A stretch of 64,000 bases of DNA, from positions 30,041 to 94,040 of the IMG/VR virus record IMGVR_UViG_3300002301_000012; one strand, given 5' to 3'. The stretch's first letter is position 1. Each line of letters starts with the position of its first letter. The DNA is from a virus. Of the stretch, positions 3,266 to 33,651 are shown piece after piece. The notes beneath the pieces are model-generated. The model did no database searches, was not told the DNA's origin, and worked only from the letters and a program-made list of their open reading frames with translations. The position numbers were made by a program, and so were the translations under genes.

Positions 3266-4359
3266 GCGGCATCCAAAGGGGTTGCTGGTTCCAATACATC
3301 GAAAAGAGAAGACTGCTGCGCAGGGATGCAATGCGGCGAAAACCAGATGCGCTCTCGGTTCGAGTTCTCGCGGCCCGCGCCATCCCCCTGTGATCCGTAG
3401 CCGCCGCGCGCCTTCCATGCAACGCAATCCCAAGAATCCGGCATCGCGTGCTCGCCTTCGTATCCGCAAAGTGCGATGCGAAGCAGCGGGTTATCGCCGT
3501 TCTCGATTGCCCAGCGCCGCACAGAATGCGCCACTGTGAGGCTGTCGGCTGCGTATAGCGTTTCGTTTCTGTCGGCCGTGTCTGCGTAAGGCGGATCGAG
3601 GAAGACACCCGTAATGCCATGCTTGAAAGTTACCGAAGGGCCTAAGATTCGCTGCCAGTCCCCGCAACACACACGAACCCTGCGGAGCCGTTCCGCGAGT
3701 TCGCGCATGTAGCCTCGAAGATCTACGGATCTTCGGGTTATAATTCCGCTTCCGTTTGGATTTATCAGTTCTGGAATTTGCCTGGAAATCCGCGTCCCCG
3801 AGGTGAGGTCGCTTGCGATGCACGCCTGTTCGCCACCCGCGTTCCCGAGGTGAGGTAGCTGGCGATGCACGCCCGTACCCGCGTTCCCGAGGTGAGGTCG
3901 ATTGCGATGCACGCCCTTACCCGCGTCCCCGAGGTGAGGTCGCTGGCTCGAAGCCGCACACCAACCAGAACCGATCCATATACTTTGTCCCCATACCCAC
4001 CATCCTGCCACCATCGAATCGAAATAGAACGGATCGGTTTTCATCCGCTCTTGAAACTCCATATTGTTCACGAGCCACAAATGCCGCGCGTGCTGGTCCG
4101 CTTCGTTCACGGGGTTGTCCGCGTGTGCTGCGACCGCTTCGGGATCGTTCTGTAGCGCTCTCCAGAAGTTCGCAACGAAGCAGTCCATATCGTTTATCGT
4201 CTCGGTGTGCGCCTCGTGGGGACGCGCTAAGAGCACAGCGCCGGAGCCGAAAAAAGGTTCCACGTAGTTCGGGACGTTGCCGAAGCGATCCCAGACGATA
4301 TCTGCAACCTTGGATTTGCCGCCGAACCATGGAAACGGAGCCTTCATGCGGCGTGTCAT
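3262..4359 (-). CDS. D12-class (Dam-like) N6-adenine DNA methyltransferase
   Basis: FPWFGGKS, YVEPFFGSGAV, ETINDMD and FLDPPY motifs. Confidence 0.9.
   Translation of the reverse strand: MTRRMKAPFPWFGGKSKVADIVWDRFGNVPNYVEPFFGSGAVLLARPHEAHTETINDMDCFVANFWRALQNDPEAVAAHADNPVNEADQHARHLWLVNNMEFQERMKTDPFYFDSMVAGWWVWGQSIWIGSGWCAASSQRPHLGDAGKGVHRNRPHLGNAGTGVHRQLPHLGNAGGEQACIASDLTSGTRISRQIPELINPNGSGIITRRSVDLRGYMRELAERLRRVRVCCGDWQRILGPSVTFKHGITGVFLDPPYADTADRNETLYAADSLTVAHSVRRWAIENGDNPLLRIALCGYEGEHAMPDSWDCVAWKARGGYGSQGDGAGRENSNRERIWFSPHCIPAQQSSLFDVLEPATPLDAA
3790..3945 (-). repeat. Four copies of a ~42-nt repeat inside the methylase (RPHLGxAGxGVH units)
   Basis: ccgcgtYcccgaggtgaggt begins at 3790, 3837, 3879 and 3921. 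Confidence 0.9.
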
Positions 4360-7770: not shown

Positions 7771-8508
7771 GTGCCAGAGTTAAAATCACCGAAACATGAA
7801 TATTTTGCTATCGGCATCACAAACGACGTAAACCCTACGGAGGCTTACATTTCCGCTGGGTATTCGAAAGCTGGCGCGGCTGCCGGCGCATGGAGATTGT
7901 TAAATCTCAAAAAAATTCGTGATAGGATTAACGAATTACGAGCAGAAAGACACGCTGCCATCACAAAACGTGTGATAGAAGGCGAGATTCTGACGACGAC
8001 TGAATGCCTGATTGCTGAACGCAATCAACAGGTTAGGCTAAAGTGGCAGCGGTATCAAAAGCTATCACAAATTGTGCAGGAACGGACATCGTTCTTCACT
8101 GATCCAAAGAACGAGGCGATAATCGCACTGGGTGGACCGGACAAGCTTCCAGGCGTCGATACTGGCTTCGTGACGCTACGGTACAGGACACTTGGCCGAA
8201 AGGTCGTGCCGGAACTGAATCTGGATGTGCCTTTGTTGCGCGAGATGAGCTTACTGGAGGAACAGGTCGGTCGAATGATGGGATTCATCCAGCCGATCAG
8301 TATTAGCCAGACGAACAACAGTCAGACGGTCGCTGTGCAAGCCGTTCAGGCGAATGTATACATGCGGGACAAGCCACCTGAATTAGTCGGTCGGTCTGTT
8401 GATCAATTGCGAAAACTGATGGACCTCGCCAAGGCATGTCAGGCTTCTGGCGTTCACGTGGAACTGCCGCAACTTTCAGCGCCGCCTCCTGCTGCCGATG
8501 CTCGGTGA
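7771..8508 (+). CDS. terS: Terminase small subunit
   Basis: LKSPKHEYFA...TEAYISAGYS....A.RLL....IRDRINELR HTH, immediately upstream of TerL. Confidence 0.85.
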   Translation: MPELKSPKHEYFAIGITNDVNPTEAYISAGYSKAGAAAGAWRLLNLKKIRDRINELRAERHAAITKRVIEGEILTTTECLIAERNQQVRLKWQRYQKLSQIVQERTSFFTDPKNEAIIALGGPDKLPGVDTGFVTLRYRTLGRKVVPELNLDVPLLREMSLLEEQVGRMMGFIQPISISQTNNSQTVAVQAVQANVYMRDKPPELVGRSVDQLRKLMDLAKACQASGVHVELPQLSAPPPAADAR

Positions 8509-10243
8509 AGAGTTATTCACGAAAACGCAGAATGCTGCTGTCTGGTCCGCAATGTACCAGCCAGAAATCTATCGAGACAGGCCCGATGACTTTTCGCACA
8601 TGGTGCTCGACTCCGAAACATGGAGCAAGCAAAGCGAAATACTCAACAGCTTATGTCGTTATGGGCAGACGTGGGTTAAAGCCTGTCACGGTTCAGGCAA
8701 GAGTTATGCTGCGGCGCTGGCTTTGCTGTACTGGCTTGGGATCTGGGACGATGGCGTAGTCATATCAACCGCGCCGAAACAAGATCAAGTTGAACGCATA
8801 CTCTGGGGAGAAGTTCATGCTGCGATTCGTCGCAGCAAGTATCCGTGGCCGCAGCCAAACGTCGCCAGCCTGCGATTCAACGAAAAGCGTTATGCGACAG
8901 GAACGACCACTACAGTTACAGCGCAAAAAGGTTCAACAGCATTTCAGGGCACACACTCCGGCCATGTCCTGATCATCGTGGACGAGGCACCTGGTATTCA
9001 TCCTGCAATCTGGGGTGCTATCGAAGGTATTCGTGCGGCCGGCTACGTCCGCGTGCTGGCACTCGGCAACCCAACTATTCCCAGCGGTCCATTTTACGAT
9101 GCTTTCACCACTCGGTCGCCGAACATCAACTGCATTACGATTTCAGCATTCGACACGCCGAACTTCAAAGACGTGTATCTGAAGTACATAGACACACAGA
9201 CTGGCAAAATCGTTATTTTCGGCAACCTCAACGGGCGCAACCTTCTGGAGATGGATGTCGACGAACTGAACGACAATCCTGCGCCATATCTGACGACCAA
9301 AAGCTGGGTGCGCGAACTGTACGACAAGGTGGGACCGGATCACTACAGCTTCATATCGCGAGCGCTGGGACAATTCCCGCACGAAGCACCGGATTCTCTT
9401 ATCTCTCTTCGTTGGCTGGAACTGGCTGCCGAACGCGAGTTCTTTGCGGAAGATAATGACAAACCGATCAAAGGTGGTATCGACGTTGCCGGCCCAGGCG
9501 AGGACGAGACAACACTGTTTTTGCGCCAAGGTCGGAACGTGCTGCTACAGAAGGCATATCCAGAGGCTGACCCAACAGGACGTGTGCTGGCTGATCTGAT
9601 GCCGTTTAGGGATCGCATAGAAAACCTGAATATCGATGCTGATGGGATCGGATACTACTTCGCCAAAACCATCGAAAGCAATGGCTACAAGGTAACGTTT
9701 TGCCACGCTGGATGGGCAGCTATCGACACAGATCAATTCTTCAATTGGAAGGCTGAGATGTACTGGGGTTTCCGGATGCGGTGTCAGGCCGGCGACATCG
9801 CGGGATTAAAGGATTCCGTCACCTCTGGACAATTAACCACAATCCGTTGGAATAATAACCCCAGGGGTCAGACGGTGATAGAGTCAAAAGAGGATGCGAG
9901 GAAGCGCGGCGTGAAGTCACCGGATCGCGCAGAAGGAGCGATGCTTGCCTTCGCAGAGGCTCCAGTGCATGGAATCCTCGAACTTTGGCGCGATGAGTAT
10001 GAGGCGCAAAAGCGCAAGGCACCAGAGCCTCGCGGTCCGAAGGTGGAGGATACCACCGCGATACCGTTTAAAGAGCAGGCAGCCGCAGCCAAAGAAGAAT
10101 CCGAAGTGCCATGGACTAAGGCACCAGAATCAGCGCCTAAGCTACCAGCGCGGCCTGTGTGCGACCAGTGCGGTTCCACTGGCGTCCGTGTATTCAGCGA
10201 GGCGTGGCAATGCGCTGTGTGCGGTGCAAGCGGTAAGATCTGA
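8498..10243 (+). CDS. terL: Terminase large subunit with C-terminal Zn-ribbon extension
   Basis: Walker A KACHGSGKS, Walker B IIVDEAPG, LGNP, and nuclease motifs GIDVAGPGEDET and SPDRAE. Confidence 0.95.
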   Translation: MLGEELFTKTQNAAVWSAMYQPEIYRDRPDDFSHMVLDSETWSKQSEILNSLCRYGQTWVKACHGSGKSYAAALALLYWLGIWDDGVVISTAPKQDQVERILWGEVHAAIRRSKYPWPQPNVASLRFNEKRYATGTTTTVTAQKGSTAFQGTHSGHVLIIVDEAPGIHPAIWGAIEGIRAAGYVRVLALGNPTIPSGPFYDAFTTRSPNINCITISAFDTPNFKDVYLKYIDTQTGKIVIFGNLNGRNLLEMDVDELNDNPAPYLTTKSWVRELYDKVGPDHYSFISRALGQFPHEAPDSLISLRWLELAAEREFFAEDNDKPIKGGIDVAGPGEDETTLFLRQGRNVLLQKAYPEADPTGRVLADLMPFRDRIENLNIDADGIGYYFAKTIESNGYKVTFCHAGWAAIDTDQFFNWKAEMYWGFRMRCQAGDIAGLKDSVTSGQLTTIRWNNNPRGQTVIESKEDARKRGVKSPDRAEGAMLAFAEAPVHGILELWRDEYEAQKRKAPEPRGPKVEDTTAIPFKEQAAAAKEESEVPWTKAPESAPKLPARPVCDQCGSTGVRVFSEAWQCAVCGASGKI

Positions 10244-11796: not shown

Positions 11797-12061
11797 TTCG
11801 CGACCACTGCGCAATCGGCGGCGACAGCATTCCCTGCGAACGGAACCATATCTTCCATCCATCGCGTTCAAGTTGACGGTTAGCCTCGTTCCACTTCCAT
11901 CCACCGTGAACGCGAAGTCGGTCTTTCATATCTTCGATGGAAGTGTCTGGCGTGTATGGTTTGTAGCGTCCGAACAAATCGGGTCCGCTGCCAGCCCATG
12001 GAATAAGCGCGGCATCGGCACGTCCTGCTGCTATTGAGTCCTCAATGTCTTGAATATTCAA
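11777..12061 (-). CDS. Hypothetical protein
   Basis: 94-aa ORF coupled to the methylase stop. Confidence 0.5.
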   Translation of the reverse strand: MNIQDIEDSIAAGRADAALIPWAGSGPDLFGRYKPYTPDTSIEDMKDRLRVHGGWKWNEANRQLERDGWKIWFRSQGMLSPPIAQWSRITEVQR

Positions 12062-12690
12062 AATTGCAAAACCCCTTGGCTCAATCTTTTGGCAGAGATT
12101 TCACAATACCGCTCCTCGATCTCGATTCCGATGCACCGACGATTTAGATCCTTGCAGGCACGTGCTGTTGTGCCAGATCCTAAGAACGGGTCCACAATTA
12201 ATTCACCTTCCAGCGATGCACGATTGATAAGCCACTTCCATTGATCGATAGGCTTCGGACAGGGATGGCCGTTCTTTTCTGCTGCGGTTGTCGCAGTGTA
12301 AGAATCAGGACGAGAGCCTTTCCCCGCATATGGGTCAGTGCCGTAAAACAGGATCGGCTGCCAACAAGTGAATCCCCACGGATTGACGCCAGATCCGGCA
12401 GGATAGGAAAAACTTCCGATCCAGTCCGGTTGAGGGTATCTGAATAGATGGCGGATTCCGCTGGTTAAAGCGATTCGCTTGGTAGAAAATCGCAATAGTG
12501 CAAGAACGGACAGTGCCAGCGTAACATCGTCTGCTGAATCGTGGCCGCTGGCGTAGTTCTCTCCGATGCCATACTGAGGATCTGTAATTGCGGCGTCGAA
12601 ACCTGCCTCGCATAATGCAGGCAGTAGATCCAAGCAGTTCGCGTGGTAAATCGTAATACCAGCCTGTTCATCCACGAAGTAAGGTTTCAT
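12058..12690 (-). CDS. N4/N6 DNA methyltransferase (beta class)
   Basis: ITIYHANCL, ITDPQYG, HPCPKP, VDPFLGSGTT and IGIEIEERYC motifs. Confidence 0.9.
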   Translation of the reverse strand: MKPYFVDEQAGITIYHANCLDLLPALCEAGFDAAITDPQYGIGENYASGHDSADDVTLALSVLALLRFSTKRIALTSGIRHLFRYPQPDWIGSFSYPAGSGVNPWGFTCWQPILFYGTDPYAGKGSRPDSYTATTAAEKNGHPCPKPIDQWKWLINRASLEGELIVDPFLGSGTTARACKDLNRRCIGIEIEERYCEISAKRLSQGVLQF

Positions 12691-12893
12691 TTTTGTTCGA
12701 AGTCCAATATACGCTGGTTGGCAAAGCGAAGTCGAGTCCTGCCAGCACGCCAGAGCTTACCAAGGCGGCTGCGCTCTGCTGGCGACCGGCGCGACCATAC
12801 CAGCTTCATTGCGGCGCTGCGGTTGCCGTTCACGGACGGCCTGTTTTTTCTCGTTGACAGTTCGCCTCTCAATGGATAATACTATAGCAAGTA

Positions 12894-13082
12894 GTGAGCG
12901 ACGAGACAACAGGAAATACAGTATCGATCAAGGCAAGGCTACGCAAGTGCCGCTTTTGCGGTTACGAGTGGGCGCTCAGATCGCTATTGCGTCCTGAGCC
13001 GACACGGTGCCCTAACAACGCCTGTCGGTCGACACGGTGGAAGGAAGGAACGAGGAGACGTGGAAAAAACAAACCAGCCTGA
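12894..13082 (+). CDS. Small Zn-ribbon protein
   Basis: CRFCGYEW...PTRCPNNACRSTRW. Confidence 0.7.
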   Translation: MSDETTGNTVSIKARLRKCRFCGYEWALRSLLRPEPTRCPNNACRSTRWKEGTRRRGKNKPA

Positions 13083-13890
13083 AGAAAATCAGGTAGTAAT
13101 ACAGGAGGCATCGTCGGACCTTCAGTTCTCGATCCACATGGAGCGCGTTCAGCAGGGTCCAACGTTCAACGACCTGCGCAAGATGTCGCGGCACGAGCGG
13201 TTGCGCCCGCTCATAGAGCAGCGCAAAGACCGCATCTATGCGGCTCCGTGGAAGTTCGAACCTGAGTCGCGGTACTGGCGCGGCAGCGATACGATCCAGA
13301 TGTCGCGAAGGCTGACAGAAGTATTTGCTGAGCCAGACGGCCTGATTCCATTTCAAAAGTGGCTGCGCATCGTGCTGGAGGATGTGTTCGTTGTCGATGC
13401 GGTCGCAGTGTATATCGAGAAGCGAGCGTTCAAGAAGCCACTATCAGAGGTTTTCCCTGATGGAATATCGGAAACGACCATTCGGCCTTACTTTCGACTG
13501 ATCGATCCTTCCACGATTGCATTAATAGTCGACCAGTTCGGCAACCGGCCAGTCTACACAGCAGAGCATCCTGTGCCGTTTGCAGTGCAGGCAACGGACG
13601 ACGAGCCAGTGTTTTTCAGCGAAAAGGAGCTTTACCACGGCATTCGGCACGACCGGCGCAAAGACGGCTGGCTGTGGGGCAAGAGCAAGATCGAGCAGGT
13701 CGCGGCGCTGGAGTACGAGTGCTCGCAGATGGTACTGAAGGAAAGCAAAGACAAGGCCATGTTCGGCGTGTTTGAACCGCTGATTGGCGACACTGCCGGC
13801 GACCTGGACTGGCTGGAAGAAATGATCAACGGAATTGTTATGCAGTGCTACGGTGAGACGCATTGCCGGTTCCGCTGGCTGGTGAACTGA
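13060..13890 (+). CDS. Truncated portal-protein paralogue
   Basis: FAEPDGLIPFQKWLRIVLEDVFVVDAVAVY aligns with WAKPDGFNTFRQWLRMLSEDLLVCDAVACY of the 18681 portal. Further collinear blocks are present. Confidence 0.8.
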   Translation: MEKTNQPEENQVVIQEASSDLQFSIHMERVQQGPTFNDLRKMSRHERLRPLIEQRKDRIYAAPWKFEPESRYWRGSDTIQMSRRLTEVFAEPDGLIPFQKWLRIVLEDVFVVDAVAVYIEKRAFKKPLSEVFPDGISETTIRPYFRLIDPSTIALIVDQFGNRPVYTAEHPVPFAVQATDDEPVFFSEKELYHGIRHDRRKDGWLWGKSKIEQVAALEYECSQMVLKESKDKAMFGVFEPLIGDTAGDLDWLEEMINGIVMQCYGETHCRFRWLVN

Positions 13891-14029: not shown

Positions 14030-14401
14030 GTGCATCAGTCCATCCTCTACGACATCCTCGGTGTAAAGCGCGGCGCTACGGTTGACGAAATCAACAAAGC
14101 GTATCGCAAGCGAGCGTTCGACCTGCATCCGGATCGAAACCATAATCCAGATGCGCTGGAACAGATCAATCTACTGAATGTCGCGCGGGCCACGCTGGTC
14201 GACAAAAAGAAGCGAACGCAGTACGATGCCTCATTGATTCGGCTAGGCGGTGTCAGCCACGCCTGGTTCTGTCCTGAGTGCGATAACGTGCAGGTCTTTG
14301 TCAGCCAATACATCTGGAAGTGCAATGTATGTGGGCTGTGGGGAAGGCTGATCAAGGTAGCTGCTTACATCGGTGAGGAAGTGAAGGAGGTTCCCGCGTG
14401 A
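14030..14401 (+). CDS. DnaJ J-domain protein with C-terminal Zn ribbon
   Basis: LYDILGV..AT..EINKAYRKRAFDLHPDRN...LVD..KR.QYD with an intact HPD, followed by CPEC...CNVC. Confidence 0.9.
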   Translation: MHQSILYDILGVKRGATVDEINKAYRKRAFDLHPDRNHNPDALEQINLLNVARATLVDKKKRTQYDASLIRLGGVSHAWFCPECDNVQVFVSQYIWKCNVCGLWGRLIKVAAYIGEEVKEVPA

Positions 14402-14987: not shown

Positions 14988-15403
14988 CGAAGCCTGATTT
15001 GATGCTTTGCATGGCAGCCGCCGCTTGTTTATTTATGGTACGCGGTTCGGCCATGTACTTGCTTCGTTATTGGCACTGGTGGCGAGCACGTAAAGCTCTT
15101 GAGCGATTGCAGACACTAATGCAAAGCAGCGGTCCTGAGACATCGTACAAGCTGGCTATCGTTCAGCAGGCGTTGCTGGAACGCAAACCGCGACTGTTTC
15201 CTGTTCTTCGCGCCAACATCAATGCGTTGCGCGCGCTGGCCATTCTGTTGCCGGTAGCGATAAAGACTGTACTTCTGTGGAACCACGAGTTAACGTGGAC
15301 ATTCGTGGCCAGCCGGTATCCTGCCGAATGGAAACGGGCGTGCGCGATTTGTCCTAAATACGAAACAGTTCGCCAGCGGGAAGGCGTGAAGGAAATCGCA
15401 TGA
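14984..15403 (+). CDS. Hypothetical membrane protein
   Basis: ATGA-coupled ORF with hydrophobic segments. Confidence 0.6.
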   Translation: MTKPDLMLCMAAAACLFMVRGSAMYLLRYWHWWRARKALERLQTLMQSSGPETSYKLAIVQQALLERKPRLFPVLRANINALRALAILLPVAIKTVLLWNHELTWTFVASRYPAEWKRACAICPKYETVRQREGVKEIA

Positions 15404-15921
15404 TCTTTGAGCGCATCGGGCGGATATTCGCTCCCTCAAATTCGGTTGAAAAACCGGAAGTGGCCACCGATAAACCGTTGATAGAAAAGCCAGTTGCAGA
15501 TGAGGCGAATTGCTCAAGCATAAAGGGCAGATCGATGGTCGGCTACTCTCGGCGTGGGTTCTTGGGAATGCTGGCATCAGCTGCGGTCGCCTCTGAGATA
15601 AAAAAACCAGAATGGTTGAGCGAAATTCGGGATCGCGCTGATGCTCATGTTGCCAATCTCGCAGACGGTGGATACTACGACATAAAGTGGCCTATCAAAA
15701 CGCGGTGGCATGAGTTCGGTGTTTTGTGTACAGAAACACTAGAGGTTTTTATTCCGATGCAATCGCCTGTTGGTCTATCGCGTGGCGAGTACCATGTATC
15801 GGAGACTGGCGTTTTTACCTTCAATCAGGCCGACGCGAATAAAACCGTATCGATTTCACACAATGAATACGCGCGAAGAAAGTGTCCGGCGACTGCTGCG
15901 CTACCGTGGGACCACCGATGA
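15400..15921 (+). CDS. Chimeric protein: twin-arginine motif + capsid C-terminus-like segment + tail-tube-like segment
   Basis: SRRGFLG motif, plus internal alignments to the 27888 capsid and 32899 tail tube (see findings). Confidence 0.7.
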   Translation: MIFERIGRIFAPSNSVEKPEVATDKPLIEKPVADEANCSSIKGRSMVGYSRRGFLGMLASAAVASEIKKPEWLSEIRDRADAHVANLADGGYYDIKWPIKTRWHEFGVLCTETLEVFIPMQSPVGLSRGEYHVSETGVFTFNQADANKTVSISHNEYARRKCPATAALPWDHR

Positions 15922-16355
15922 AATTGATTCTGTTTGGTTTGATCCTGATTAGCGCCAATATCGCAGTGATCTGGTTGACGTTGCAGTTTCTACCGGCGAC
16001 AGTCTGGCCGGTACTGTACTATCGCAAGGCGCAACGCGCATGGGTGAAACACTCCCCTTTGCTTGATGCCAGGTGGCGTCGGCTGAAGTACTGGCCGCAC
16101 AAAGTCGCTCGGTCCTGGATTGAACGCTGGATGATTTGGCGTGTCCGCGAATACTTTCTGTGGTTCCCTGATCGGACCACCTGTCCAGCGTGCGGAAAGA
16201 AGGCTGTTCATCCGTTCGAGTTCCATCCGCAGGCGCGAGTCCTTCGAGTGACTTGCTTACGCTGCAAAGCCAACTTTCCGAAGCAGCCGATATATAGTGC
16301 GGCATCGTGGATGCCGGATCTACCAGTGGCAAAACCAAACAAGGAGCAGGAGTAG
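15918..16355 (+). CDS. Membrane-anchored Zn-ribbon protein
   Basis: MKLILFGLIL... TM segment, CPAC...CLRC, ATGA coupling. Confidence 0.65.
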   Translation: MKLILFGLILISANIAVIWLTLQFLPATVWPVLYYRKAQRAWVKHSPLLDARWRRLKYWPHKVARSWIERWMIWRVREYFLWFPDRTTCPACGKKAVHPFEFHPQARVLRVTCLRCKANFPKQPIYSAASWMPDLPVAKPNKEQE

Positions 16356-17118: not shown

Positions 17119-17321
17119 GCCTTGAAGTCTACGGCGACGGCGATGCGGAAGACCTCTGCGAACTCGCAAACCGCTACGATCACAGCCTGTATCCAGATGG
17201 CAAGTGGCGCGAAGACGACTCGGAGCCAGGTAAGACCGACGCCGAGATGTGGGAGTACGTGGAAGACAGACGGCAATCGGATCTGGAGGATATGGCGTTG
17301 AGCGGGGAGGATATGGCGTGA
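17115..17321 (+). CDS. Small acidic protein
   Basis: MSLEVYGDGD..., GGAGG RBS, coupled to its neighbours. Confidence 0.55.
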   Translation: MSLEVYGDGDAEDLCELANRYDHSLYPDGKWREDDSEPGKTDAEMWEYVEDRRQSDLEDMALSGEDMA

Positions 17322-18547
17322 GTTTCGAGATCAGGCAGGGTCATACGCTCGACTTGCTCCGTGCGATGCCAACCGATAGCGTCCATTGCGTCTGTTCCTC
17401 GCCCCCCTACTGGGGGCTGAGGGATTACAAGATCGAACCTCAGATATGGAACGATCCCGGCAACTGCGAACATCACTTTACGGATGAAGAAATCGCTACT
17501 GAAGTCGGCCGGGGAAATTGGGCGCAGGCGGTTAATGGCCGTGGGGAGGCACAAGGAGATATCGCTGCCTTCCGTGAACCGATCCGAGCGACACAGTCGC
17601 GGGGCTTCTGTGCGTGTGGTGCCTGGCGTGGGCAACTCGGCATGGAGCCGACGCCGGAATTATTCATCGCGCATATTACCGATATCTTCCGCGAAGTACG
17701 CCGGGTGCTCAGACCAGACGGTACGTGCTGGATCAATATTGGTGACTCGTATGCCGCGCATCCTGGACAGCGCAAGACGACGGATAAGGCTGGTCCTAAG
17801 CAGCAGACGAATACAGCGTCTCCCCAGACGCCTTCACGCTGCGTCGATGGCCTTAAAGCCAAGGATCTCGTTGGCATTCCGTGGATGATGGCCTTTGCGC
17901 TTCGTGCCGACGGTTGGTATCTGCGTTCTGAGATCATCTGGCAGAAAATCAATCCCATGCCGGAATCGGTACGTGATCGACCGACAAAGGCGCATGAGCA
18001 AATCTTTCTTTTATCAAAGTCTTCAAAGTATTGGTACGACGCTGATGCGATTAAGGAACGGGCCGGAGACGATACGCACGCTCGATACGCGCGGGGTCGA
18101 TCAGACGACCACAAATGGGCCGATGGTGGACCAGGCAACCAATCCATAGCGAAATCATTCGCGCATATGGCAAACCGCGAACGTGTCCGCGCGGCTGGCG
18201 TGAATCCGAAGTGCGCCGAACCGGGCAGCGGGATCAAGCAGAACTCCAGTTTCAGCGCAGCGGTCAAAGACATCGTTGAATACCGCAACAAGCGCGACGT
18301 ATGGCCGATGGCTTCCATGCCAACACCGGAGGCGCATTTTGCTACCTTCCCGCTGGAGTTGCCGGAAACCTGTATTCTCGCTGGTTGTCCGCCGGATGGT
18401 CTGGTGCTCGATCCGTTTTCCGGGGCCGGAACCACTGGACTCGCCGCACTGAAGCATGGTCGTAGCTTTCTCGGGCTGGAACTCAATCCTGAATACATCG
18501 CCATCGCCCATTCCCGCCTGAACAAAAGGATGCCCCTGTTCGCTTAA
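17318..18547 (+). CDS. N4-cytosine/N6-adenine DNA methyltransferase
   Basis: SSPPYWGLRDY, VRRVLRPDGTCWINIGDSY, HFATFP and LDPFSGAGTT motifs. GGAGG RBS before the GTG. Confidence 0.92.
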   Translation: MSFEIRQGHTLDLLRAMPTDSVHCVCSSPPYWGLRDYKIEPQIWNDPGNCEHHFTDEEIATEVGRGNWAQAVNGRGEAQGDIAAFREPIRATQSRGFCACGAWRGQLGMEPTPELFIAHITDIFREVRRVLRPDGTCWINIGDSYAAHPGQRKTTDKAGPKQQTNTASPQTPSRCVDGLKAKDLVGIPWMMAFALRADGWYLRSEIIWQKINPMPESVRDRPTKAHEQIFLLSKSSKYWYDADAIKERAGDDTHARYARGRSDDHKWADGGPGNQSIAKSFAHMANRERVRAAGVNPKCAEPGSGIKQNSSFSAAVKDIVEYRNKRDVWPMASMPTPEAHFATFPLELPETCILAGCPPDGLVLDPFSGAGTTGLAALKHGRSFLGLELNPEYIAIAHSRLNKRMPLFA

Positions 18548-18680: not shown

Positions 18681-21600
18681 ATGGCCAACTTCCAGGTACC
18701 AGAAGGCGCAAAGCGTCTTGGACCGATCAATGCTTTGATCGGAACGCAACCAACACAAGTCGCTGGTGTTTCGCCGTCGTTCTGGTTTTCTCCTCTTCAG
18801 CCTGTAACGCCAACAGCGCCATCCGATTACAAACCTCGCCAGTGGGGCTATCAACCTGGTGCCAACCTCATTTGGCAGCCGAAGTCGGACGAAGGCTACG
18901 GTTACGATCTGCTGCGTCAACTGTCTTTGTCTTGGGATCTTCTTCGCATGGCGCTGGAGATGAAAAAGGACGAAATCGGAGATGTCGAGTTCGAACTTCG
19001 GCTGAAGCGACAGGACAACGAGAAGCAGGCAGACTACAAAAACAGGACGCTGAAAGGCGCGAAAGAACTGCAAGACCTTAAGCAGTTCTGGGCCAAGCCG
19101 GATGGTTTCAATACGTTCCGGCAGTGGCTTCGTATGCTATCCGAAGATCTTCTGGTCTGCGATGCCGTAGCCTGCTATCTTCCGCGCGACAACAAAGGCA
19201 AAGTCGCGATGGTCATGCCGACTGACGGCGCATCGTGGAACAGGCTGCTCACCGATCAGGGAATCACTCCTCGCGATCCAACCAGCGCTGCATACCAACA
19301 GGTTTGTTACGGCTTCCCTGCATGGGATGGTACAACGCAGGACGTCGTGTTCAGTATGCAGAACCCGACAACATACCGGCGCTATGGGTACTCCCGCGTT
19401 GAAAGATGCCTGACAACAGTGGCCTTCGGTATTCGTCGTCAGATGTTCCAGATTGCGGAGTACTGCTATTCATCCGACACTGAGGTACTGACAAGCCGTG
19501 GTTGGCTGAAGTGGCCTGATGTCACCATGGACGATACATTTGCAACGCGGCGCATGGAAAGTGGCGAGTTTGAATGGCAGAAGGCTGAAGGTTACATTCG
19601 GAAACAGTTCAACGGTAATTTGATCCGTTTCAAAAATGTAAGCCTTGACATTTTGGTGACGCCAAACCACAGGATGCTCGTTGGTGACCTGCCCGGCAGA
19701 TACCAGCGCGGTTGTCCTACAGCAAAAGTTCCTCGCATCAAAGAGTGTTTAGTCGAAGCTTCCAATTTGGCTCTTCAGAGAGCGTTGTCAGGCCCGAACA
19801 TTTCGGCGTGGATTCCACAGGTTTCCGAATGGAATGGCGGCGTCCGTATCGAAGACAAGGTGTGGTTGTCTCCGAACAACAAAGAGATAACCGTTCGCAT
19901 GACAGGTGATCAGTACTGTGCCTTCATGGGCATGTACTTGGCAGAGGGATGCGTTGGCGGCAGCGAAAAACCTACACTTGTTCATATCTGCCAGCCAAAA
20001 GACAAAAAAGGAATCCATCAGATTTTCAGTGACATGTTGTCTGAGATCTTTGGTGCAGACGTACACCACGACGGAAAGATGTTTTCATGGTCACGAAAAT
20101 CATTGGCCTTGTACCTTCGGCAATTCGGGCTAGCAAATGAAAAGTTCATACCTGAAGAGATTAAGAACGCGCCCAAAGATCAATTACAGATATTCTGGCG
20201 ATACTACGCATTGGGTGATGGCGAATCGGCGACTGCTATCGGCGAAAAGAAACGTTCTCAGCAGGTATTCACTGTTAGTAAAAAACTGTCTGACGATCTG
20301 ACGGAAGTTGTGCAAAAAATAGGTTTGCGCCCAAATGTCGGTGTTCGCGCTGCGGGCAAAGCCTTTTTCGGTAAACCAGGACTGGGACGTGAAATAAACG
20401 CTAGTGAAGGCTATACGATAACTGCGACCGACCAGCCATGCACAAGAAATTGGGATGTTGAATTTGTCCCTTACGATGGTGAAGTGTTCTGCGTATCGGT
20501 GCCGAACCACACGTTGTATGTTCGGCGCAATGGGAAACATGCGTGGTGCGGGAACACGGCCGGCAATATACCGGAAGCGTTTTTGTTCATGCCTTCGGAC
20601 ATTCCACCGCAGCGACTGAAGGAGTTTCAGGATTACATCGATTCGATCCTAAGCGGTAATCTTGCGGAGCGTCGCAAGATCCGTATGATGCCTGGATTCG
20701 GCGACAGCGGCAAACCGAACATCGTGTTCCCGAAGGAAGCGCTGCTCAAAGATGAACTGGACGTGTGGTTGGCGCAGCTGGTTTGTGCGATTGTCGGCGT
20801 GAGTGCGCAGCCGTTCCTCAAAATGGTGAATCGCGCAAGTTCAGAAGAAGCGAACGACGCAGCCCGCGAAAAGTGGCTGAAGCCTGATGTCGATTTCTTT
20901 TGCGAGTACATTAATACCTGCCTTGAGCGCATGGGAATGGATCAGTACGAAATAGCTGCGAAGGCGCAGCGCGATACCGATCCACTGAAGCAGGCGCAGG
21001 CAGATGCGGCGGTGTGGGGTAAGGTTTACACGCCGAACGAACTTCGCGAGCAGCGCGGAGAAGATCCTGTGGAAGGCAAGAACGCAAACCGGCTCGGTGT
21101 ACTCAGTCCGATGAACGGTTTCATGCCACTCGATCCTGATGATGACGATCTGGCTTTGATGCAGCAAATGAAGGCTACTCCTCCCAAACCTGACGGAAGT
21201 GGTGGAGGTGGAGGTTCGCCGGCACCGAACGGCGGCGGTAGCGGTGGCAGCCCGAAGCCGAAGACTAAACCATCTGCAAAGAAATCGTTGGCAGCAACGT
21301 GGGATCTTGAAAAAGATCACAAGTACGGATGTATCATGGTTCCAATCGATCCAGCGTCCGAAGCCGGTCTTCGCATGAAAGCAATGAGGGATGCAATACC
21401 AGATGCAGACCTGATGGAAGGCAACGGAACCTCGCGCGAGGAAGAACCGCATGTCACTGTGCGATACGGGATCAAGGACGGCGGCGAAGGTCTGCCGGAA
21501 TACCTGACTGGCCTTGCACCATTCACGCTGAAGTTCGGTAAAACAATGGCATTTGCGCCTTCTGAACAGTCTGATGGCGCGGCTCCGCTGGTGGTTCAGG

Positions 21601-23873
21601 TTGATTCGCCTGAGTTGCACGCAGTTAACGCACAGTTGGCACAGGAAGCGACGTTCAAAGAGGCTACATTCGACTACCATCCACACGCGACGCTGGCATA
21701 CGTCGCGCCTGAACGCGCACAGCGGTACGTTGACGACGACTATCTGGACGGCGTGGAATATCCAGTGCGGTCCATTGTGATTACAATGCCAGATGGAAGT
21801 TCGCAGGAAATCATGCTGACAGGCGGATTCGCAGCACCTGCGAAGTTCAGCGGAAGCGCTGCGCTGCGGCCAGCGTCATCGCGCATCAAAAATAAAAATA
21901 AAAAACCGACGAAAGGCGTCACGCCTCCACCGATAGACCTATCGGACAGCACACAGATCGATTCCGGTTATCGCAGCAGTCCAGGTGCAACGCAGTCAAG
22001 TACTGTAGCAGTCGAGGACGGTGGCCAAGTGGAGCCGGGAGGCGTGGACGAAAACAATCCGGCTGAAGATCCACCACGCGCAGATCACAAACCAATGCAG
22101 CGAACGGTCCATGCGTTCTTTAAGGCGCAGGCGGCCGCTGCTTTCGACCGACTTAAGCGGATCGGTGAACTTCACAAGGTCATCAAGGCGTCAGATGATG
22201 GCGATGATCAGGACGATGATGCTGAGCGCATCGGCGAAGCAGAACTGCTGTCCGCTGCGAATGACATAAACTGGCGCGAACTGATACCACAGGTTCTGGC
22301 GCATCTGCAAGAGGCTGGCAACTTCGGTGTTGTGAACGGTCTGCATCGCGCGGCAGTGGCCGGTGTCGGTGAAACGTCGGCTTCCATCGGACCAGCACAA
22401 ACGCTTGCTGCTGAATACGCTAAGGACCGCGCTGCCGAAATGGTCGGCATGAAATGGGTCGACGGCGAACTGGTCGAAAATCCGAACGCAATGTGGGCTA
22501 TCAGCGACACAACGCGAGACCAGTTGCGTGAAATAATCGCGCAGGCACTATCGGAAGAAACGCCGATTGACGTGCTTGCCGAACGTATCCGCGATGCTGG
22601 TTCGTTTTCTGAATCGCGTGCGGAGACTATCGCCAATACTGAGATCGCAACGGCACAGGAGAAAGGCGTTACTGGCTCGTGGAAGGCTACAGGAGCAGTT
22701 GAGAAGGTGCGCTGGTCTCCATCGTCGCTCGGGCCATGTCCGGAGTGTCTGGACAACGTTTTGGCAGGTTCAATACCGTTTGGAGATACTTTCCCCACTG
22801 GTGTATTAGCTCCTCCGAACCATCCGAACTGCTTCGCTGGTGATGCAGTCGTATCGGCCAGCGGAGTTTCGGTAGCGTACAGTCGTTGGTTTGAAGGGGA
22901 AGTCATCATCCTGCGAGTCTCTGGCGCACCAGACATTACCGTCACGCCAAATCACCCGATACTGACGCAACGTGGATGGGTCGCTGCTGGTGATTTGGAA
23001 CTCACGGATAAGGTCTTGCAGTGCGTTGATCCAAATCTGGCTGTCTCCCTGATGAACCCAGACGATAATCACATGGAAACCGGCATCCAGGAGATAGCGC
23101 ACACGCTTGGGATGTCGCACAGCGTGTTGTTCAGTATTGTGCCAACCTCCACCGAAGACTTCCACGGCGATGGAATCGCCAACGGCAAAGTCGATATTGT
23201 AGGCACCGCAGGCGCGCTGTCTTGTGACCAGTCCGATAGAATTCAGCACAGAGAAAACACGCTGCTCTGCGCTCTGCATGAGCGGGGGCTTTTGCTGAAT
23301 AGCGATTGCGTGCATCCGTTTGGTATCTTCGGGGACGATTCTTCCGCGACTGGCAGCATGAGCAGCAGCGGTCTGATGAAGTCGTTGGTCTTTGGTCAGT
23401 TGTCCCATGCGGACAATGGCGGCTTCATGGGTTCCACGGACCATCAAACCAGAACGCTTGAAAGCTTTGATGATCATTGTATGGTGGGTGTCATGCCTTT
23501 TCCCGATAGACAAAGCAGACTCACCAGCCAAGTAGCTTGTGTGCATAGCCATCAATTCGGGCAGCGTGAATTTGCAGTCTCTTCCTTTGCGCATCGGATC
23601 GCCCGGTTGGCGAAGAGAGATTCCAGAACGAATCAAGTTAAGACGAACCATACCGTAACCAAGCTGGTATCGCGCACAAATAGTCTGGAGCGTGTCGCCA
23701 GCCTGATACGCTTTGCAGATGTCGTCAAGTTGTGGAAGAATCGTTTTGCGGGGCATGTGTTTAACCTCAGTACAGATACCGGCACGTATTTTGCTAACAC
23801 TATACTTGCACACAACTGTCGGTGTGCTTTGATTATCACAAAGGTTCGCGGTAAAGAGGAGAAAGCAGCATGA
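18681..23873 (+). CDS. Portal / 2H-phosphoesterase / MuF (gpF-like head morphogenesis) polyprotein containing two inteins
   Basis: Portal motifs in the N-terminal part; HVTV and HATL 2H motifs; MuF motifs SRAETIANTE...CPEC...PPNHPN|CRC; two Hint domains. Confidence 0.9.
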   Translation: MANFQVPEGAKRLGPINALIGTQPTQVAGVSPSFWFSPLQPVTPTAPSDYKPRQWGYQPGANLIWQPKSDEGYGYDLLRQLSLSWDLLRMALEMKKDEIGDVEFELRLKRQDNEKQADYKNRTLKGAKELQDLKQFWAKPDGFNTFRQWLRMLSEDLLVCDAVACYLPRDNKGKVAMVMPTDGASWNRLLTDQGITPRDPTSAAYQQVCYGFPAWDGTTQDVVFSMQNPTTYRRYGYSRVERCLTTVAFGIRRQMFQIAEYCYSSDTEVLTSRGWLKWPDVTMDDTFATRRMESGEFEWQKAEGYIRKQFNGNLIRFKNVSLDILVTPNHRMLVGDLPGRYQRGCPTAKVPRIKECLVEASNLALQRALSGPNISAWIPQVSEWNGGVRIEDKVWLSPNNKEITVRMTGDQYCAFMGMYLAEGCVGGSEKPTLVHICQPKDKKGIHQIFSDMLSEIFGADVHHDGKMFSWSRKSLALYLRQFGLANEKFIPEEIKNAPKDQLQIFWRYYALGDGESATAIGEKKRSQQVFTVSKKLSDDLTEVVQKIGLRPNVGVRAAGKAFFGKPGLGREINASEGYTITATDQPCTRNWDVEFVPYDGEVFCVSVPNHTLYVRRNGKHAWCGNTAGNIPEAFLFMPSDIPPQRLKEFQDYIDSILSGNLAERRKIRMMPGFGDSGKPNIVFPKEALLKDELDVWLAQLVCAIVGVSAQPFLKMVNRASSEEANDAAREKWLKPDVDFFCEYINTCLERMGMDQYEIAAKAQRDTDPLKQAQADAAVWGKVYTPNELREQRGEDPVEGKNANRLGVLSPMNGFMPLDPDDDDLALMQQMKATPPKPDGSGGGGGSPAPNGGGSGGSPKPKTKPSAKKSLAATWDLEKDHKYGCIMVPIDPASEAGLRMKAMRDAIPDADLMEGNGTSREEEPHVTVRYGIKDGGEGLPEYLTGLAPFTLKFGKTMAFAPSEQSDGAAPLVVQVDSPELHAVNAQLAQEATFKEATFDYHPHATLAYVAPERAQRYVDDDYLDGVEYPVRSIVITMPDGSSQEIMLTGGFAAPAKFSGSAALRPASSRIKNKNKKPTKGVTPPPIDLSDSTQIDSGYRSSPGATQSSTVAVEDGGQVEPGGVDENNPAEDPPRADHKPMQRTVHAFFKAQAAAAFDRLKRIGELHKVIKASDDGDDQDDDAERIGEAELLSAANDINWRELIPQVLAHLQEAGNFGVVNGLHRAAVAGVGETSASIGPAQTLAAEYAKDRAAEMVGMKWVDGELVENPNAMWAISDTTRDQLREIIAQALSEETPIDVLAERIRDAGSFSESRAETIANTEIATAQEKGVTGSWKATGAVEKVRWSPSSLGPCPECLDNVLAGSIPFGDTFPTGVLAPPNHPNCFAGDAVVSASGVSVAYSRWFEGEVIILRVSGAPDITVTPNHPILTQRGWVAAGDLELTDKVLQCVDPNLAVSLMNPDDNHMETGIQEIAHTLGMSHSVLFSIVPTSTEDFHGDGIANGKVDIVGTAGALSCDQSDRIQHRENTLLCALHERGLLLNSDCVHPFGIFGDDSSATGSMSSSGLMKSLVFGQLSHADNGGFMGSTDHQTRTLESFDDHCMVGVMPFPDRQSRLTSQVACVHSHQFGQREFAVSSFAHRIARLAKRDSRTNQVKTNHTVTKLVSRTNSLERVASLIRFADVVKLWKNRFAGHVFNLSTDTGTYFANTILAHNCRCALIITKVRGKEEKAA
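19464..20555 (+). mobile_element. Intein 1 (364 aa) with LAGLIDADG homing endonuclease, in the portal domain
   Basis: Y|CYSSDTEVLT...VTPNHRM...FMGMYLAEG...YALGDG...YDGEVFCVSVPNHTLYVRRNGKHAWCGN|T. Confidence 0.93.
21320..21830 (+). other. 2H phosphoesterase domain, Acb1/T4 gp57B-like
   Basis: EEPHVTVRYG (His at 21450) and DYHPHATLAY (His at 21684), flanked by low-complexity linkers. Confidence 0.8.
22806..23756 (-). CDS. Antisense HTH-repeat + DUF559/Vsr-like endonuclease nested in intein 2
   Basis: GAGGT RBS before the ATG at 23756. Two HTH units (Y.AG.S/T...I..R.......I/V...L.RSG...R), then AEQR...Q..G.YNIDF...IAVEVFGGGWH...LLDAGFHVIIVW. Confidence 0.8.
   Translation of the reverse strand: MPRKTILPQLDDICKAYQAGDTLQTICARYQLGYGMVRLNLIRSGISLRQPGDPMRKGRDCKFTLPELMAMHTSYLAGESALSIGKRHDTHHTMIIKAFKRSGLMVRGTHEAAIVRMGQLTKDQRLHQTAAAHAASRGRIVPEDTKRMHAIAIQQKPPLMQSAEQRVFSVLNSIGLVTRQRACGAYNIDFAVGDSIAVEVFGGGWHNTEQHAVRHPKRVRYLLDAGFHVIIVWVHQGDSQIWINALQDLIREFQITSSDPSTLRQYRVIWRDGNVWCARDSQDDDFPFKPTTVRYRNSAGRYDCITSEAVRMVRRS
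22830..23816 (+). mobile_element. Intein 2 (329 aa) in the MuF HPNCRC motif
   Basis: HPN|CFAGDAVV...VTPNHPILTQRGWVAAGDL...FAGHVFNLSTDTGTYFANTILAHN|CRC. Confidence 0.92.
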
Positions 23874-27887: not shown

Positions 27888-29519
27888 ATGTCAAGCCAAG
27901 CACTCGCAAGTCTGGCACTTCTCGGTAAATCTCTCGGCCAGGAGATGATGGCCACACTTCGAAAGGACGTCACGACTTCGGGGCTTAGCTCGACATCGCA
28001 GTTGTCGTACTACTACCTGGAACAGACGGCCAAGAACATCTACCCGGTGTTCTATCCGATTCTGGCCAGCACGCCTCGTGTCTCGCCGGAATGGGGTGGC
28101 CAGCGCGTCGGTGGTACGTCGGTCAACTGGAAAGCAGTTGTTTCCATCGCCAATGGCGGTGCGCCGTGGACGTCGGAAGGCAACCGCAACGCCTACATGA
28201 ACTTCACCACACGGAACTACACGGCGCAGCATAAGTCGTGGGGTCCGGACGTGAAGGTTACGTTCTTCGCGCAGCAGGCTGGTCTCGGATTCGACTCGAA
28301 TCTGGCCATCGCTCAGATGGGCGCACTGAACCAACTGCTCAACGACGAAGAGCGCATGATTCTGTTCGGCAACAGCGGACCGGCCAGCGCAGGTGGTAAT
28401 GGTTTTGCGCTCGGACAGTGCGCAACGCCGACACTGACTGCGGCCACAACCGGTGGCGCTCTTGCAAGCGGACTGACTTGCACAGTGTTTTGCGTCGAAC
28501 TGACTGGCTGGGGCGTTCGCTATGCCGGCACGATTGCTTACGGGCTGGCTGGCGGTGGCCTTGGTAAGAGCGGCGTTCAGCTTCCGTTTACACGGACCAA
28601 TGCGGACGGTTCTACCGACATCATCAACGGTGGCACTGGCATCGTATCAGCGACGTCTGCCGAAGTAACGACTGGCGGCAGCGGTAAGGCTTCGCTGACT
28701 GCGACTGTCGTTGGTTCTGTCGCAGCAATGGGCTGGGCCTGGTATCTGGACACCACGGATGCCAGCGTTGGCAATCTGGCGAACGCTTATTTCGTCGGCA
28801 CGACAACCGTTCCGACCATCACAATCACTGCCGTGCCTTCGACGTCAACCAATCAGGTTGGTAGCGCAACCGGCGCGAATGGAACCAGCCTGTCCACAGA
28901 CAACTCGTGGAATACGCTGGACATCGACGGTATCACAACCTGGAACATCGGCACGCAGGGTTCTTCGCAGCCTGCGTATCTGGCGAACCTTCAGGGCGCC
29001 GGATGGACTTCGAACGGTGACGGAACCATTGCGGAAATCGAAACAGCGGCCAACTACCTCTGGCAGAATTACGAAATCTCCATCGACCAGATTTTCCTCG
29101 GTGGTGCTCTCATTCAGTCGTTCTCCCGCGCTATCTTCACCACAGGCAGCGGAACGGCCGGAGCACAGCGCATCATCATCGACCGCGATGCGGCTGGCGG
29201 CGTAACAGGTGGACAGATCGTTCGCGAATACGTCTGGAAGTACAGCAACACTGCACTCCAGAAAATCGTTCCGGTCCGCGCGCATCCGTGGCTTCCCGGT
29301 GGTGTCTGCATGTTGGACCTGACGACCAATCCGTACCCGGCTGCCGGTGGCGCAATTCCGGCTGTTCGTCGCATGGTCATGCTTGAAGACCACTTTGCGA
29401 TTCGCTTCCCGTACGTCAACTTGCAGCATCAGCTTGGCACGTACGCATTCGGCACGCTGGAGCATTATCTGCCTTTCGGAGGCGGATTTATCACTGGCGT
29501 TGCCAACAAGGTCAACTAG
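27888..29519 (+). CDS. Major capsid protein with inserted beta-rich domain
   Basis: Position, strong AAGGAG RBS, and LEQTAKNIYPV..P....PRV, EERMIL.GN and HPWLP.G motifs. Confidence 0.85.
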   Translation: MSSQALASLALLGKSLGQEMMATLRKDVTTSGLSSTSQLSYYYLEQTAKNIYPVFYPILASTPRVSPEWGGQRVGGTSVNWKAVVSIANGGAPWTSEGNRNAYMNFTTRNYTAQHKSWGPDVKVTFFAQQAGLGFDSNLAIAQMGALNQLLNDEERMILFGNSGPASAGGNGFALGQCATPTLTAATTGGALASGLTCTVFCVELTGWGVRYAGTIAYGLAGGGLGKSGVQLPFTRTNADGSTDIINGGTGIVSATSAEVTTGGSGKASLTATVVGSVAAMGWAWYLDTTDASVGNLANAYFVGTTTVPTITITAVPSTSTNQVGSATGANGTSLSTDNSWNTLDIDGITTWNIGTQGSSQPAYLANLQGAGWTSNGDGTIAEIETAANYLWQNYEISIDQIFLGGALIQSFSRAIFTTGSGTAGAQRIIIDRDAAGGVTGGQIVREYVWKYSNTALQKIVPVRAHPWLPGGVCMLDLTTNPYPAAGGAIPAVRRMVMLEDHFAIRFPYVNLQHQLGTYAFGTLEHYLPFGGGFITGVANKVN

Positions 29520-32898: not shown

Positions 32899-33651
32899 AT
32901 GTATCAATTTGGTGATGGACTCATGTTCGTGGCTCCTGTGGGAGGCAACGAGGCGACCAATCCTTCGCCGTCGCAATTGCTGACGGTCCAGAGTTTCAAA
33001 TTCGACGTCAAGGTTACACTGGTGCCTCTGAAGGGGCAAAACCAGTTTCCCGATGACGTGGCACCGGGCGATAAAGAAGGGTCCGGATCTTTCGCCATCG
33101 GCAATAACCAAATCACGCAGGAGAACAATATTCTCTATGCCGATGCGCTGACAACAGGCATTAAACAAGTGACGCAGCAAACGGCGGCTATTCCAGGTTC
33201 ACCGTTTTCGATCACTGTGACCAACAGCGCCAACTTTTTCAAAGATCTTGGCGTGCGCAACTCCGCGACAGGCGCATTTTTCCAAGCCGTGGCCAGCGGA
33301 CCTACTGCTGGGCAGTATTCCGTCGCTGCTGGTGTGTATACATTTTCAACGGCAGACCATACTTCCGGTGTCAGTGTCATCATCAGCTATGCATGGACAG
33401 ATTCCAGCGTCGGAAACACGCTGACGGTAAACAATCAACTGATGGGCTACGGACCAATCGTGGAAATCTGGTTCTCGGAAACCTATCAGAGCGTTTCAGG
33501 CAATCCGAACGGACTTCATCTGTTCAATTGCCGCATCGGATCGGTGAAAAAGGATATTAAGCGAGACGGCTATCTGGTGCCTGAATACGACTTCATGGCA
33601 TATCCGAATTCGTCGAATCAGGTCTTCGAAGAGTTCCAGGTCGCCAACTAA
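32899..33651 (+). CDS. Tail tube protein with auxiliary beta domain
   Basis: MYQFG.G...L.GQNQFP..VA.G; AAGGAG RBS; followed by a terminator and the chaperone gene. Confidence 0.8.
   Translation: MYQFGDGLMFVAPVGGNEATNPSPSQLLTVQSFKFDVKVTLVPLKGQNQFPDDVAPGDKEGSGSFAIGNNQITQENNILYADALTTGIKQVTQQTAAIPGSPFSITVTNSANFFKDLGVRNSATGAFFQAVASGPTAGQYSVAAGVYTFSTADHTSGVSVIISYAWTDSSVGNTLTVNNQLMGYGPIVEIWFSETYQSVSGNPNGLHLFNCRIGSVKKDIKRDGYLVPEYDFMAYPNSSNQVFEEFQVAN

Follow-up and report, generated by a model that had tools for sequence, protein, structure and literature searches.

Why would a phage gene join a leader of the export type to pieces of virion proteins? This question is raised by the gene at 15400-15921 (+ strand) in a 64,000-nucleotide stretch of viral DNA (positions 30,041 to 94,040 of the IMG/VR record IMGVR_UViG_3300002301_000012), which is called the window here and is numbered from its first letter. 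A first-pass annotation, made from the letters alone, had described the gene as a chimera of a twin-arginine translocation (Tat) motif, a capsid C-terminal fragment and a tail-tube fragment, and had explained it either as an epitope-string decoy or as gene birth from structural scraps. Family profiles bore out this chimeric make-up, with E-values of about 1e-8 for each of the two virion-type pieces, and the leader was found in a family of small proteins from other phages. We tentatively read the domain behind the leader as a molecular mimic, which would act as a decoy or a competitor towards some factor recognising virion elements, and consider this possible rather than probable. The features of the gene and of its proposed sources are as follows.

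15400..15921, + strand: the whole family gene, encoding 173 amino acids (aa); the open reading frame (ORF) lies where the first-pass annotation had placed it
15400..15438, + strand: N-terminal peptide (residues 1-13), which does not vary within the close subfamily (alignment A1, columns 2-12) and is predicted to form a small beta-hairpin
15523..15591, + strand: leader core (residues 42-64), with K-G-R-S-M-V-G-Y and S-R-R-G-F-L-G, followed by 13 uncharged, Ala-rich residues and by A-V-A ahead of Ser65
15670..15762, + strand: copied capsid C-terminal beta-hairpin (residues 91-121), corresponding to positions 477-507 of the capsid hidden Markov model (HMM), E 1e-8
15772..15864, + strand: copy of part of a tube/connector beta-module (residues 125-155); the HMM alignment reaches back to residue 106
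15886..15918, + strand: C-terminal tail with a terminal L-P-W motif, which is common to the family members P0007, P0010 and P0023 when compared by eye
29388..29480, + strand: the phage's own version of the copied hairpin, residues 501-531 of the capsid gene 27888-29519
33253..33393, + strand: the phage's own version of the module, about residues 119-165 of the tail-tube gene 32899-33651 (tube alignment A3)

The ORF overlaps its upstream neighbour at 15400-15403 and its downstream neighbour at 15918-15921 through ATGA start/stop sequences, which are the usual sign of translational coupling, and AAGGA stands ca. 7 nt before its start. The motif strings quoted in the first-pass annotation were located at 15547, 15670 and 15772 within the ORF, and the proposed sources at 29388 (ORF 27888-29519) and 33298 (ORF 32899-33651); the S-R-R-G-F-L-G motif, the capsid-like segment and the tube-like segment are thus all in the places given for them. 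An internal start at Met46, which would make the signal N-terminal, was rejected, since residues 1-13 do not vary among relatives, and the start codon was therefore assigned to 15400. AlphaFold2 (AF2) predicted strands at residues 3-6 and 9-12 of this N-terminal peptide with a predicted local distance difference test score (pLDDT) of about 84. An identical 173-aa protein is carried by 79 contigs. By these signs, 15400-15921 is a conserved, expressed-looking accessory gene.

The two proposed source genes were characterised as follows. The 543-aa product of 27888-29519 has no Pfam match and belongs to phrog_13692. Its AF2 model, obtained with a 40-sequence alignment, had a pLDDT of 79.6 and a predicted template modelling score (pTM) of 0.79, with strands at residues 494-510 and 513-526, and a Foldseek search with this model matched the HK97-fold capsids of Pa223, SPO1, SU10 and HK97 (E 1e-10 to 1e-5). 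As modelled, the 543-aa protein is an HK97-fold major capsid protein, and the copied stretch is the last long beta-hairpin of the model, situated at its C-terminal end. The 250-aa product of 32899-33651 belongs to phrog_8234. Since the nearest Atlas clusters carry PF27173 (YomU_Tube), and since the homologue in Brevundimonas phage Polewnik is followed by two small genes and the tape measure gene, this product is, judged by family and gene order, the tail-tube protein. Searches of PDB sequences with the capsid, the tube and the tube profile gave nothing usable.

Capsid and tube HMMs were built from 40 homologues each and were matched against the ORF. The capsid HMM gave 19-20 bits (E about 1e-8) at residues 92-122, covering only positions 477-507 of 518, and the tube HMM gave 21-22 bits (E 4e-9) at residues 106-155, covering only positions 119-165 of 247. 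Judged by this coverage, the capsid-like piece is a fragment and not a paralogue of the capsid protein. When the family profile was aligned with the capsid profile by hhalign, the probability was 91.5% (E 9e-7), and when the complete 94-kb genome was searched in all six frames with the latter profile, only the capsid gene and the focal ORF were matched. Among 38,880 PHROG families, the best match of the ORF was phrog_8234, the family of the tube (E 1.2e-4), and the second best was phrog_13692, the family of the capsid (E 0.008). BLASTP of the ORF gave E 0.018 against the phage's own capsid and E 1e-7 against the capsid of the distant phage Polewnik; the corresponding values were 0.001 for the phage's own tube, 9e-5 for the Polewnik tube and 1e-5 for the connector of L004. 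A tblastn search of 50,697 phage records returned marginal matches only, which were to the capsid gene of two Brevundimonas phages.

When residues 66-173 were compared by BLASTP with the ORFs in all six frames of the window, the tube ranked first with E 0.09 and the capsid third with E 0.8, so that the by-eye alignments of the first-pass annotation were, taken alone, no better than chance. In contrast to these pairwise values, none of 5000 shuffles of residues 66-173 scored above 6 bits with either HMM, and the profile searches of the segments, which the annotation had proposed together with shuffled controls, matched the expected capsid and tube families. Since the PHROG, HMM, shuffle and hhalign results agree, the similarity is real at the family level.

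The relationship of the capsid-like piece to individual capsids was examined with its 31 residues. Most sister-clade capsids are identical to it at 13-16 of 31 positions (the best, P0072 and P0065, at 16), the capsids of the phage's own subclade (P0033-P0036) at 7-8 and the phage's own capsid at 8; as many as 113 of 123 capsids match the piece better than the phage's own capsid. The identities span clade-specific as well as family-invariant positions, which argues for descent of this sequence from a real capsid gene rather than for convergence. The first strand of the focal hairpin retains the T-R-W typical of the mini-protein family and the second strand is nearly that of the sister-clade capsids, a difference that may reflect later re-copying. 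The hairpin of the phage's own capsid is ca. 70% identical to the clade consensus, compared with 58-59% identity overall to the nearest sister-clade capsids. Because this hairpin is not unusually diverged, there is no sign of escape.

The source assigned to the other piece has to be widened. A module of ca. 60-70 aa (tube HMM positions 97-169) is common to the tail-tube proteins and the gp6-like head-tail connector proteins of relatives, with scores of 51 and 39 bits in the connectors L004:8387-9286 and L001:10878-11690, respectively; the window's own adaptor (31210-31902) is without it. The source may therefore be a tube or a connector protein. Among family members, the module is otherwise only a faint trace, in P0010. 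Going by these comparisons, the tube/connector piece is specific to the focal lineage, whereas the leader and the hairpin are common to the family.

In the leader, the twin-arginine motif S-R-R-G-F-L-G occupies residues 50-56 and fits the consensus S/T-R-R-x-F-L-K. Seven columns of the leader core are invariant across 27 diverse family members, in which the S, R, R and F of the motif and the following G do not vary. The uncharged run after the arginine pair comprises 13 residues in the focal protein (family median 16, range 12-22); in the family it is rich in Ala and Gly and often ends with Pro and a small-x-small site, for which A-V-A at residues 62-64 is the candidate in the focal protein by eye. 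By its length, an uncharged run of median 16 residues is signal-like and would not be a stable membrane helix. The leader is described here as Tat-type and signal-like by sequence, export itself being predicted. The conservation of the core goes far beyond what targeting would need and for this reason hints at a dedicated partner. A lipoprotein signal was considered and rejected, there being no Cys after the hydrophobic stretch in the focal protein and, by eye, no proper lipobox in the few Cys-bearing members. The N-terminal leader showed no resemblance to virion proteins when compared with all fetched phage ORFs.

A profile search of 1.84 billion representative proteins (E<=1e-3) yielded a leader family of 31 representatives, small proteins of about 60-180 aa, which shows that the ORF is not a singleton. 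The core K-G-R-S-M-V-G-Y-S-R-R-G-F-L-G-M is present in all 31, and beyond the leader the sequences are hypervariable. When the focal protein was left out of the leader profile (A5), the profile still matched it, at E 3.4e-17, as the sole copy in the genome. Five relatives share the invariant residues 1-13, the same leader and the same hairpin pattern. P0002-P0005, P0007 and P0011, members that are otherwise little alike, have this pattern in common (aromatic, Ile, W-P, Arg, Gly, Glu, Leu, Pro). Since the leader and the capsid hairpin are shared with a conserved family of other phages, the proposal of fresh gene birth from structural scraps in this phage was not upheld. In IMG/VR, the family gene was found at four loci, and the three phages there that carry it, G001-G003, all encode a capsid of the phrog_13692 type; no relative of the gene was found in GTDB genomes. 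The relatives on three sampled phage contigs differ only by in-frame insertions or deletions and a few substitutions, all after residue 79. Three close P0011-type copies differ by 1-3 codons per pair, too few for a ratio of nonsynonymous to synonymous rates (dN/dS).

Other proteins that combine the Tat motif with structural fragments, for which the first-pass annotation had suggested a search, do exist (P0004, P0005, P0007, P0011 and P0019). The focal protein, P0004, P0005, P0007 and P0011 match the capsid HMM at positions 468-508, and the hairpin of P0011 resembles the capsid of its own phage best among the 123 capsids (14 of 31). P0005 joins the hairpin to a piece of the capsid N-terminal region (HMM positions 25-51, E 4e-7; PHROG E 2e-6). 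In P0019 and P0022, the captured stretch comes from another capsid family: P0019 matches NF045541 (E 1.7e-6) as well as PF25209 and phrog_4523, and the 54 residues 63-116 of this protein share 46% identity (E 2e-12) with a PF25209 capsid encoded by a metagenome contig. For none of the members was there a significant match to a non-structural family. The detectable captures number five; all are from virion proteins, four from capsid proteins, and two capsid families are represented. Such repeated capture of virion pieces speaks for selection towards likeness to virion proteins.

The leaders of P0003, P0004 and P0005 contain an inserted motif rich in Cys and His, C-x6-C-x-C-x5-C-H, which starts with C-I-G-N-D-P. 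The same motif occurs in the unrelated 183-aa protein P0031 and is absent from the focal protein.

It is because selection seems to favour virion likeness that we read the product as a mimic, and the decoy half of the first-pass explanation fits the recurring virion-protein pieces at the level of sequence. The post-leader domain would show conserved virion elements to a recognising factor, which could be a pattern-recognition defence protein of the host or the assembly partner of a rival phage. The Tat-type leader would carry the mimic, perhaps with a bound partner, to the membrane translocon or across the membrane, where the adjacent zinc-ribbon membrane protein (15918-16355) is a possible partner. 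Tat, unlike Sec, is an export route that takes folded cargo and bound partners, which would give a reason for this type of leader. In a wider and unlikely version of this proposal, mini-proteins with Tat leaders would be a general counter-defence of tailed phages, displaying the virion elements that bacterial pattern-recognition proteins read (capsid hairpins, the N-terminal region of the capsid, tube/connector modules), capturing these sensors in the cytoplasm and pinning them at the membrane or expelling them via Tat, and the focal protein would be a two-epitope version with a zinc-ribbon partner.

Several observations weigh against reading the domain as a mimic. The capsid piece is closer to the sister clade (16/31) than to the phage's own capsid (8/31), which is odd for a self-protecting decoy, and the tube-like piece likewise shares 12/19 residues with other tubes as against 8/19 with the phage's own. 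The post-leader domain of most family members has no identifiable source. The AF2 model of the 173-aa protein, run with a 27-row alignment, was poor (pLDDT 62.7, pTM 0.24), with the tube-like part below 50, and only the leader helix and the capsid-type hairpin (strands 99-105/108-114) were modelled. As for the leader, its score with TIGR01409 (14.2 bits) is below the cut-off of 16.7, which was passed by four of the ten members tested (P0011, P0013, P0019 and P0020, 18.9-21.9 bits); PF10518 did not match the focal protein, and no tested member reached its cut-off of 22.7. The arginine pair at residues 51-52 is late for a signal peptide, the first Arg lying at residues 27-72 across the family (median 37.5); a Tat leader of this kind is long, yet not unheard of. 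Moreover, the Tat leader predicts a location in the periplasm or at the membrane, whereas the known capsid and tube sensors are cytoplasmic, and a copy of a trigger could activate a sensor instead of blocking it.

Further searches with the ORF were of limited help. Pfam gave no family at E<=10, ankyrin included, and the PADLOC-DB defence models matched neither the ORF nor eight neighbouring genes at E<=0.01. Its structure neighbours in the Atlas, the YomU tube and the HCP/gp6 connector, had template modelling (TM) scores of 0.36-0.40 and are a weak lead, and an Atlas feature search gave nothing usable.

The surroundings of the gene bear on the mimic proposal, with which a portal copy and a J-domain protein nearby would agree, and on the alternatives. 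The virus record of 94,040 bp is estimated to be 92% complete and holds no tyrosine or serine recombinase. From this, and from the lack of relatives of the gene in GTDB genomes, the phage is judged to be a tailed and probably virulent one. Situated between terS/terL (7771-10243) and a fusion of portal and MuF of 1730 aa (18681-23873), the family gene belongs to a co-directional block that starts after terminator-like and promoter-like sites near 12.83-12.88 kb. Other features of this block are the following.

12825-12840, + strand: terminator-like hairpin, consensus match only
12854-12883, + strand: sigma-70-like promoter (TTGACA, 18 nt, AATACT), consensus match only
13060-13890, + strand: 276-aa partial paralogue of the phage's portal, related to the N-terminal region of the latter (E 6e-10, with 30% identity across 122 aa)
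14030-14401, + strand: DnaJ J-domain protein (PF00226, E 1e-19)
15918..16355, + strand: downstream coupled gene, with an N-terminal membrane segment and a zinc ribbon (CxxC...CxxC); the match to a Lar-like zinc ribbon is weak

The portals of G001 and G003 likewise resemble the portal paralogue (E about 5e-6). The product of 15918-16355 matches that of L002:10273-10656, the gene following the family gene in G001, with a BLASTP E-value of 4e-6. Several small membrane proteins are also encoded in the block, and the family gene is coupled to such genes on both sides. In G001 and G003 the order is family gene, zinc-ribbon membrane protein, J-domain protein and portal; L002 (11111-11830) and L005 likewise encode a J-domain protein behind the family gene. 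In G002, the family gene stands among connector genes, 3.3 kb downstream of the capsid gene.

Some further observations concern neighbouring genes. The C-terminal zinc ribbon of the J-domain protein weakly resembles that of TerL (10/27 identical, E 1e-4). The 1730-aa ORF at 18681-23873 (+ strand) has, besides its portal and MuF matches, stretches matching thymidylate synthase, RNA ligase and ribonucleotide reductase PHROGs, which are probably inserted elements. The only match of the 449-aa ORF directly behind the capsid gene (29555-30904, + strand) is a weak one, in which its C-terminal part resembles a head-scaffolding PHROG (E 1e-7). L007 has a similar ORF in the position behind its capsid gene, and the product may be a decoration or second shell protein. 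Three genes are of the DNA methyltransferase type, at 3262-4359 (- strand), 12058-12690 (- strand) and 17249-18547 (+ strand), belonging to the D12 class, the N6_N4 class and phrog_67, respectively, with the phrog_67 one directly upstream of the portal gene. Downstream of the tail genes, the very large ORFs starting at 46231, 50394, 51855 and 59070 (46231-62645, + strand) have N-termini resembling Sec-type signal peptides, and exported proteins other than the focal one therefore seem to be numerous in this phage.

These surroundings, together with the variability of the post-leader domain, could also suit an envelope protein without mimicry, acting in lysis timing, superinfection exclusion or envelope remodelling, whose fast-evolving exported domain takes up bits of the phage's highly expressed structural genes as raw material by illegitimate recombination. 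The conserved leader in front of a hypervariable domain, the lack of an identifiable domain source in most members, the coupling to small membrane proteins on both sides and the many other export-type N-termini of the phage all agree with such a protein, and a Gly/Ala-rich hydrophobic stretch of 13 residues could act as a releasable signal anchor (SAR). On the other hand, neutral scavenging should also sample large non-structural genes, whereas all five detectable captures are from conserved virion elements, and the hairpin pattern persists in members that are otherwise little alike. We consider this explanation somewhat unlikely.

An assembly competitor is a less probable alternative. Its copied strands would dock on capsid, tube or connector subunits in place of the native strand and would regulate the phage's own assembly or poison that of co-infecting relatives, being similar in function to the tail-assembly blockers Tab and Tai. 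A weapon that spares its owner is expected to match the sister-clade consensus better than the owner's proteins, as the pieces do. In the capsid model the copied element forms a long hairpin at an edge, and P0005 joins it to an N-terminal piece of the same capsid family. Phage-encoded assembly blockers are known (PMC10884400, PMC11364771). However, P0011 matches the capsid of its own phage best, and the phage's own capsid hairpin is no more diverged than the rest (ca. 70% versus 58-59%). Besides, the leader would take the pieces out of the cytoplasm, the site of assembly. Since the record has no integrase or resolvase and GTDB genomes hold no prophage copy, the protein is not a prophage defence of the Tab/Tai type.

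If the leader were an uncleaved signal anchor, the protein could be part of a membrane-bound platform for morphogenesis or chaperoning, to which the portal paralogue, the J-domain protein and the small membrane proteins would belong as well. These genes do form one co-directional, coupled block between terL and the portal gene, and the same neighbourhood lies just upstream of the portal gene in G001 and G003. However, with the arginine pair on the N-terminal side, the positive-inside rule predicts that the pieces face the periplasm, away from assembling heads; the uncharged run (13 residues; family median 16) is too short for a stable membrane helix, and the gene sits elsewhere in G002, among connector genes. 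Such a platform is therefore quite improbable. Least likely by far is a functionless, decaying recombination scar or a chance similarity: although the alignments within the window lack significance by themselves, the structure was modelled poorly and no known source is more than about 50% identical to the pieces, the profile E-values of about 1e-8 were not approached by any shuffle, the frame is intact and coupled, the family has invariant leader columns, and relatives vary only by in-frame insertions or deletions and a few substitutions after residue 79.

If the members of this family are functional mimics, they would form a new class of phage accessory protein, in which copies of self-derived virion elements are borne on an export-type leader. 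They would mark short capsid, tube and connector elements that are read by a host or rival factor, and would offer a sequence-based route to finding such recognised surfaces. The value of the focal member lies in its pieces of two virion proteins, its conserved membrane partner gene and a block that includes a partial copy of the portal; it adds to the family a non-capsid piece and a better match to the sister clade than to self. In the literature searched, no description of export-leader proteins built from capsid or tube pieces was found, and Tat-tagged virion look-alikes are apparently an undescribed class.

Among known systems, the leader is best compared with Tat signal peptides (TIGR01409, PF10518), with which it shares S-R-R-x-F-L, a short, weakly hydrophobic stretch rich in Ala and Gly, and Pro and small-x-small sites. 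The closest Tat leaders are the long ones of hydrogenase small subunits and the uncleaved signal anchors of the Rieske type. The focal leader differs in that its arginine pair lies at residue 51 behind a conserved peptide, its score is below the cut-off and its core is over-conserved, and its cargo consists of copies of cytoplasmic virion proteins instead of a cofactor-binding enzyme.

For the cargo, the Gol peptide of the T4 capsid protein gp23 is instructive, as ca. 30 capsid residues suffice for recognition by the Lit protease, so that a signal can reside in pieces of this size. Gol is part of the capsid protein itself, triggers defence instead of countering it and has no leader, whereas the focal protein is the product of a separate gene with a leader. 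DSAD1 is encoded by a phage and inhibits DSR2 in competition with the tail-tube protein (PMC11087589). It is alike in being a phage protein that counters a tail-tube-sensing defence. DSAD1 is not known to be a copy of the tube protein or to have an export leader.

Tab and Tai are tail-assembly blockers of prophages and satellites that interfere with competing phages while the carrier is immune (PMC10884400, PMC11364771). They are expressed from a prophage or satellite, are not made of virion fragments and have no known homology to the focal protein, which is encoded by a phage without an integrase. Avs16 senses a conserved beta-hairpin of tail-tube proteins (bioRxiv 10.64898/2026.01.04.697583). 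By analogy, Avs-type receptors, being host sensors, are a candidate target class only, reading the kind of virion element that is copied in the focal protein.

The nearest published idea is the decoy proposal for Bodo saltans virus, in which pieces of genes essential to the virus are borne by ankyrin-repeat proteins (Deeg et al. 2018, PMC5871332). That virus is a eukaryotic giant virus and its proteins combine ankyrin repeats with fragments of catalytic domains, the decoy function being hypothetical there too, whereas the focal protein combines an export leader with virion hairpins. What the two have in common is an accessory protein in which a targeting or binding part is fused to fragments of the virus's own essential proteins, read in both cases as target mimicry.

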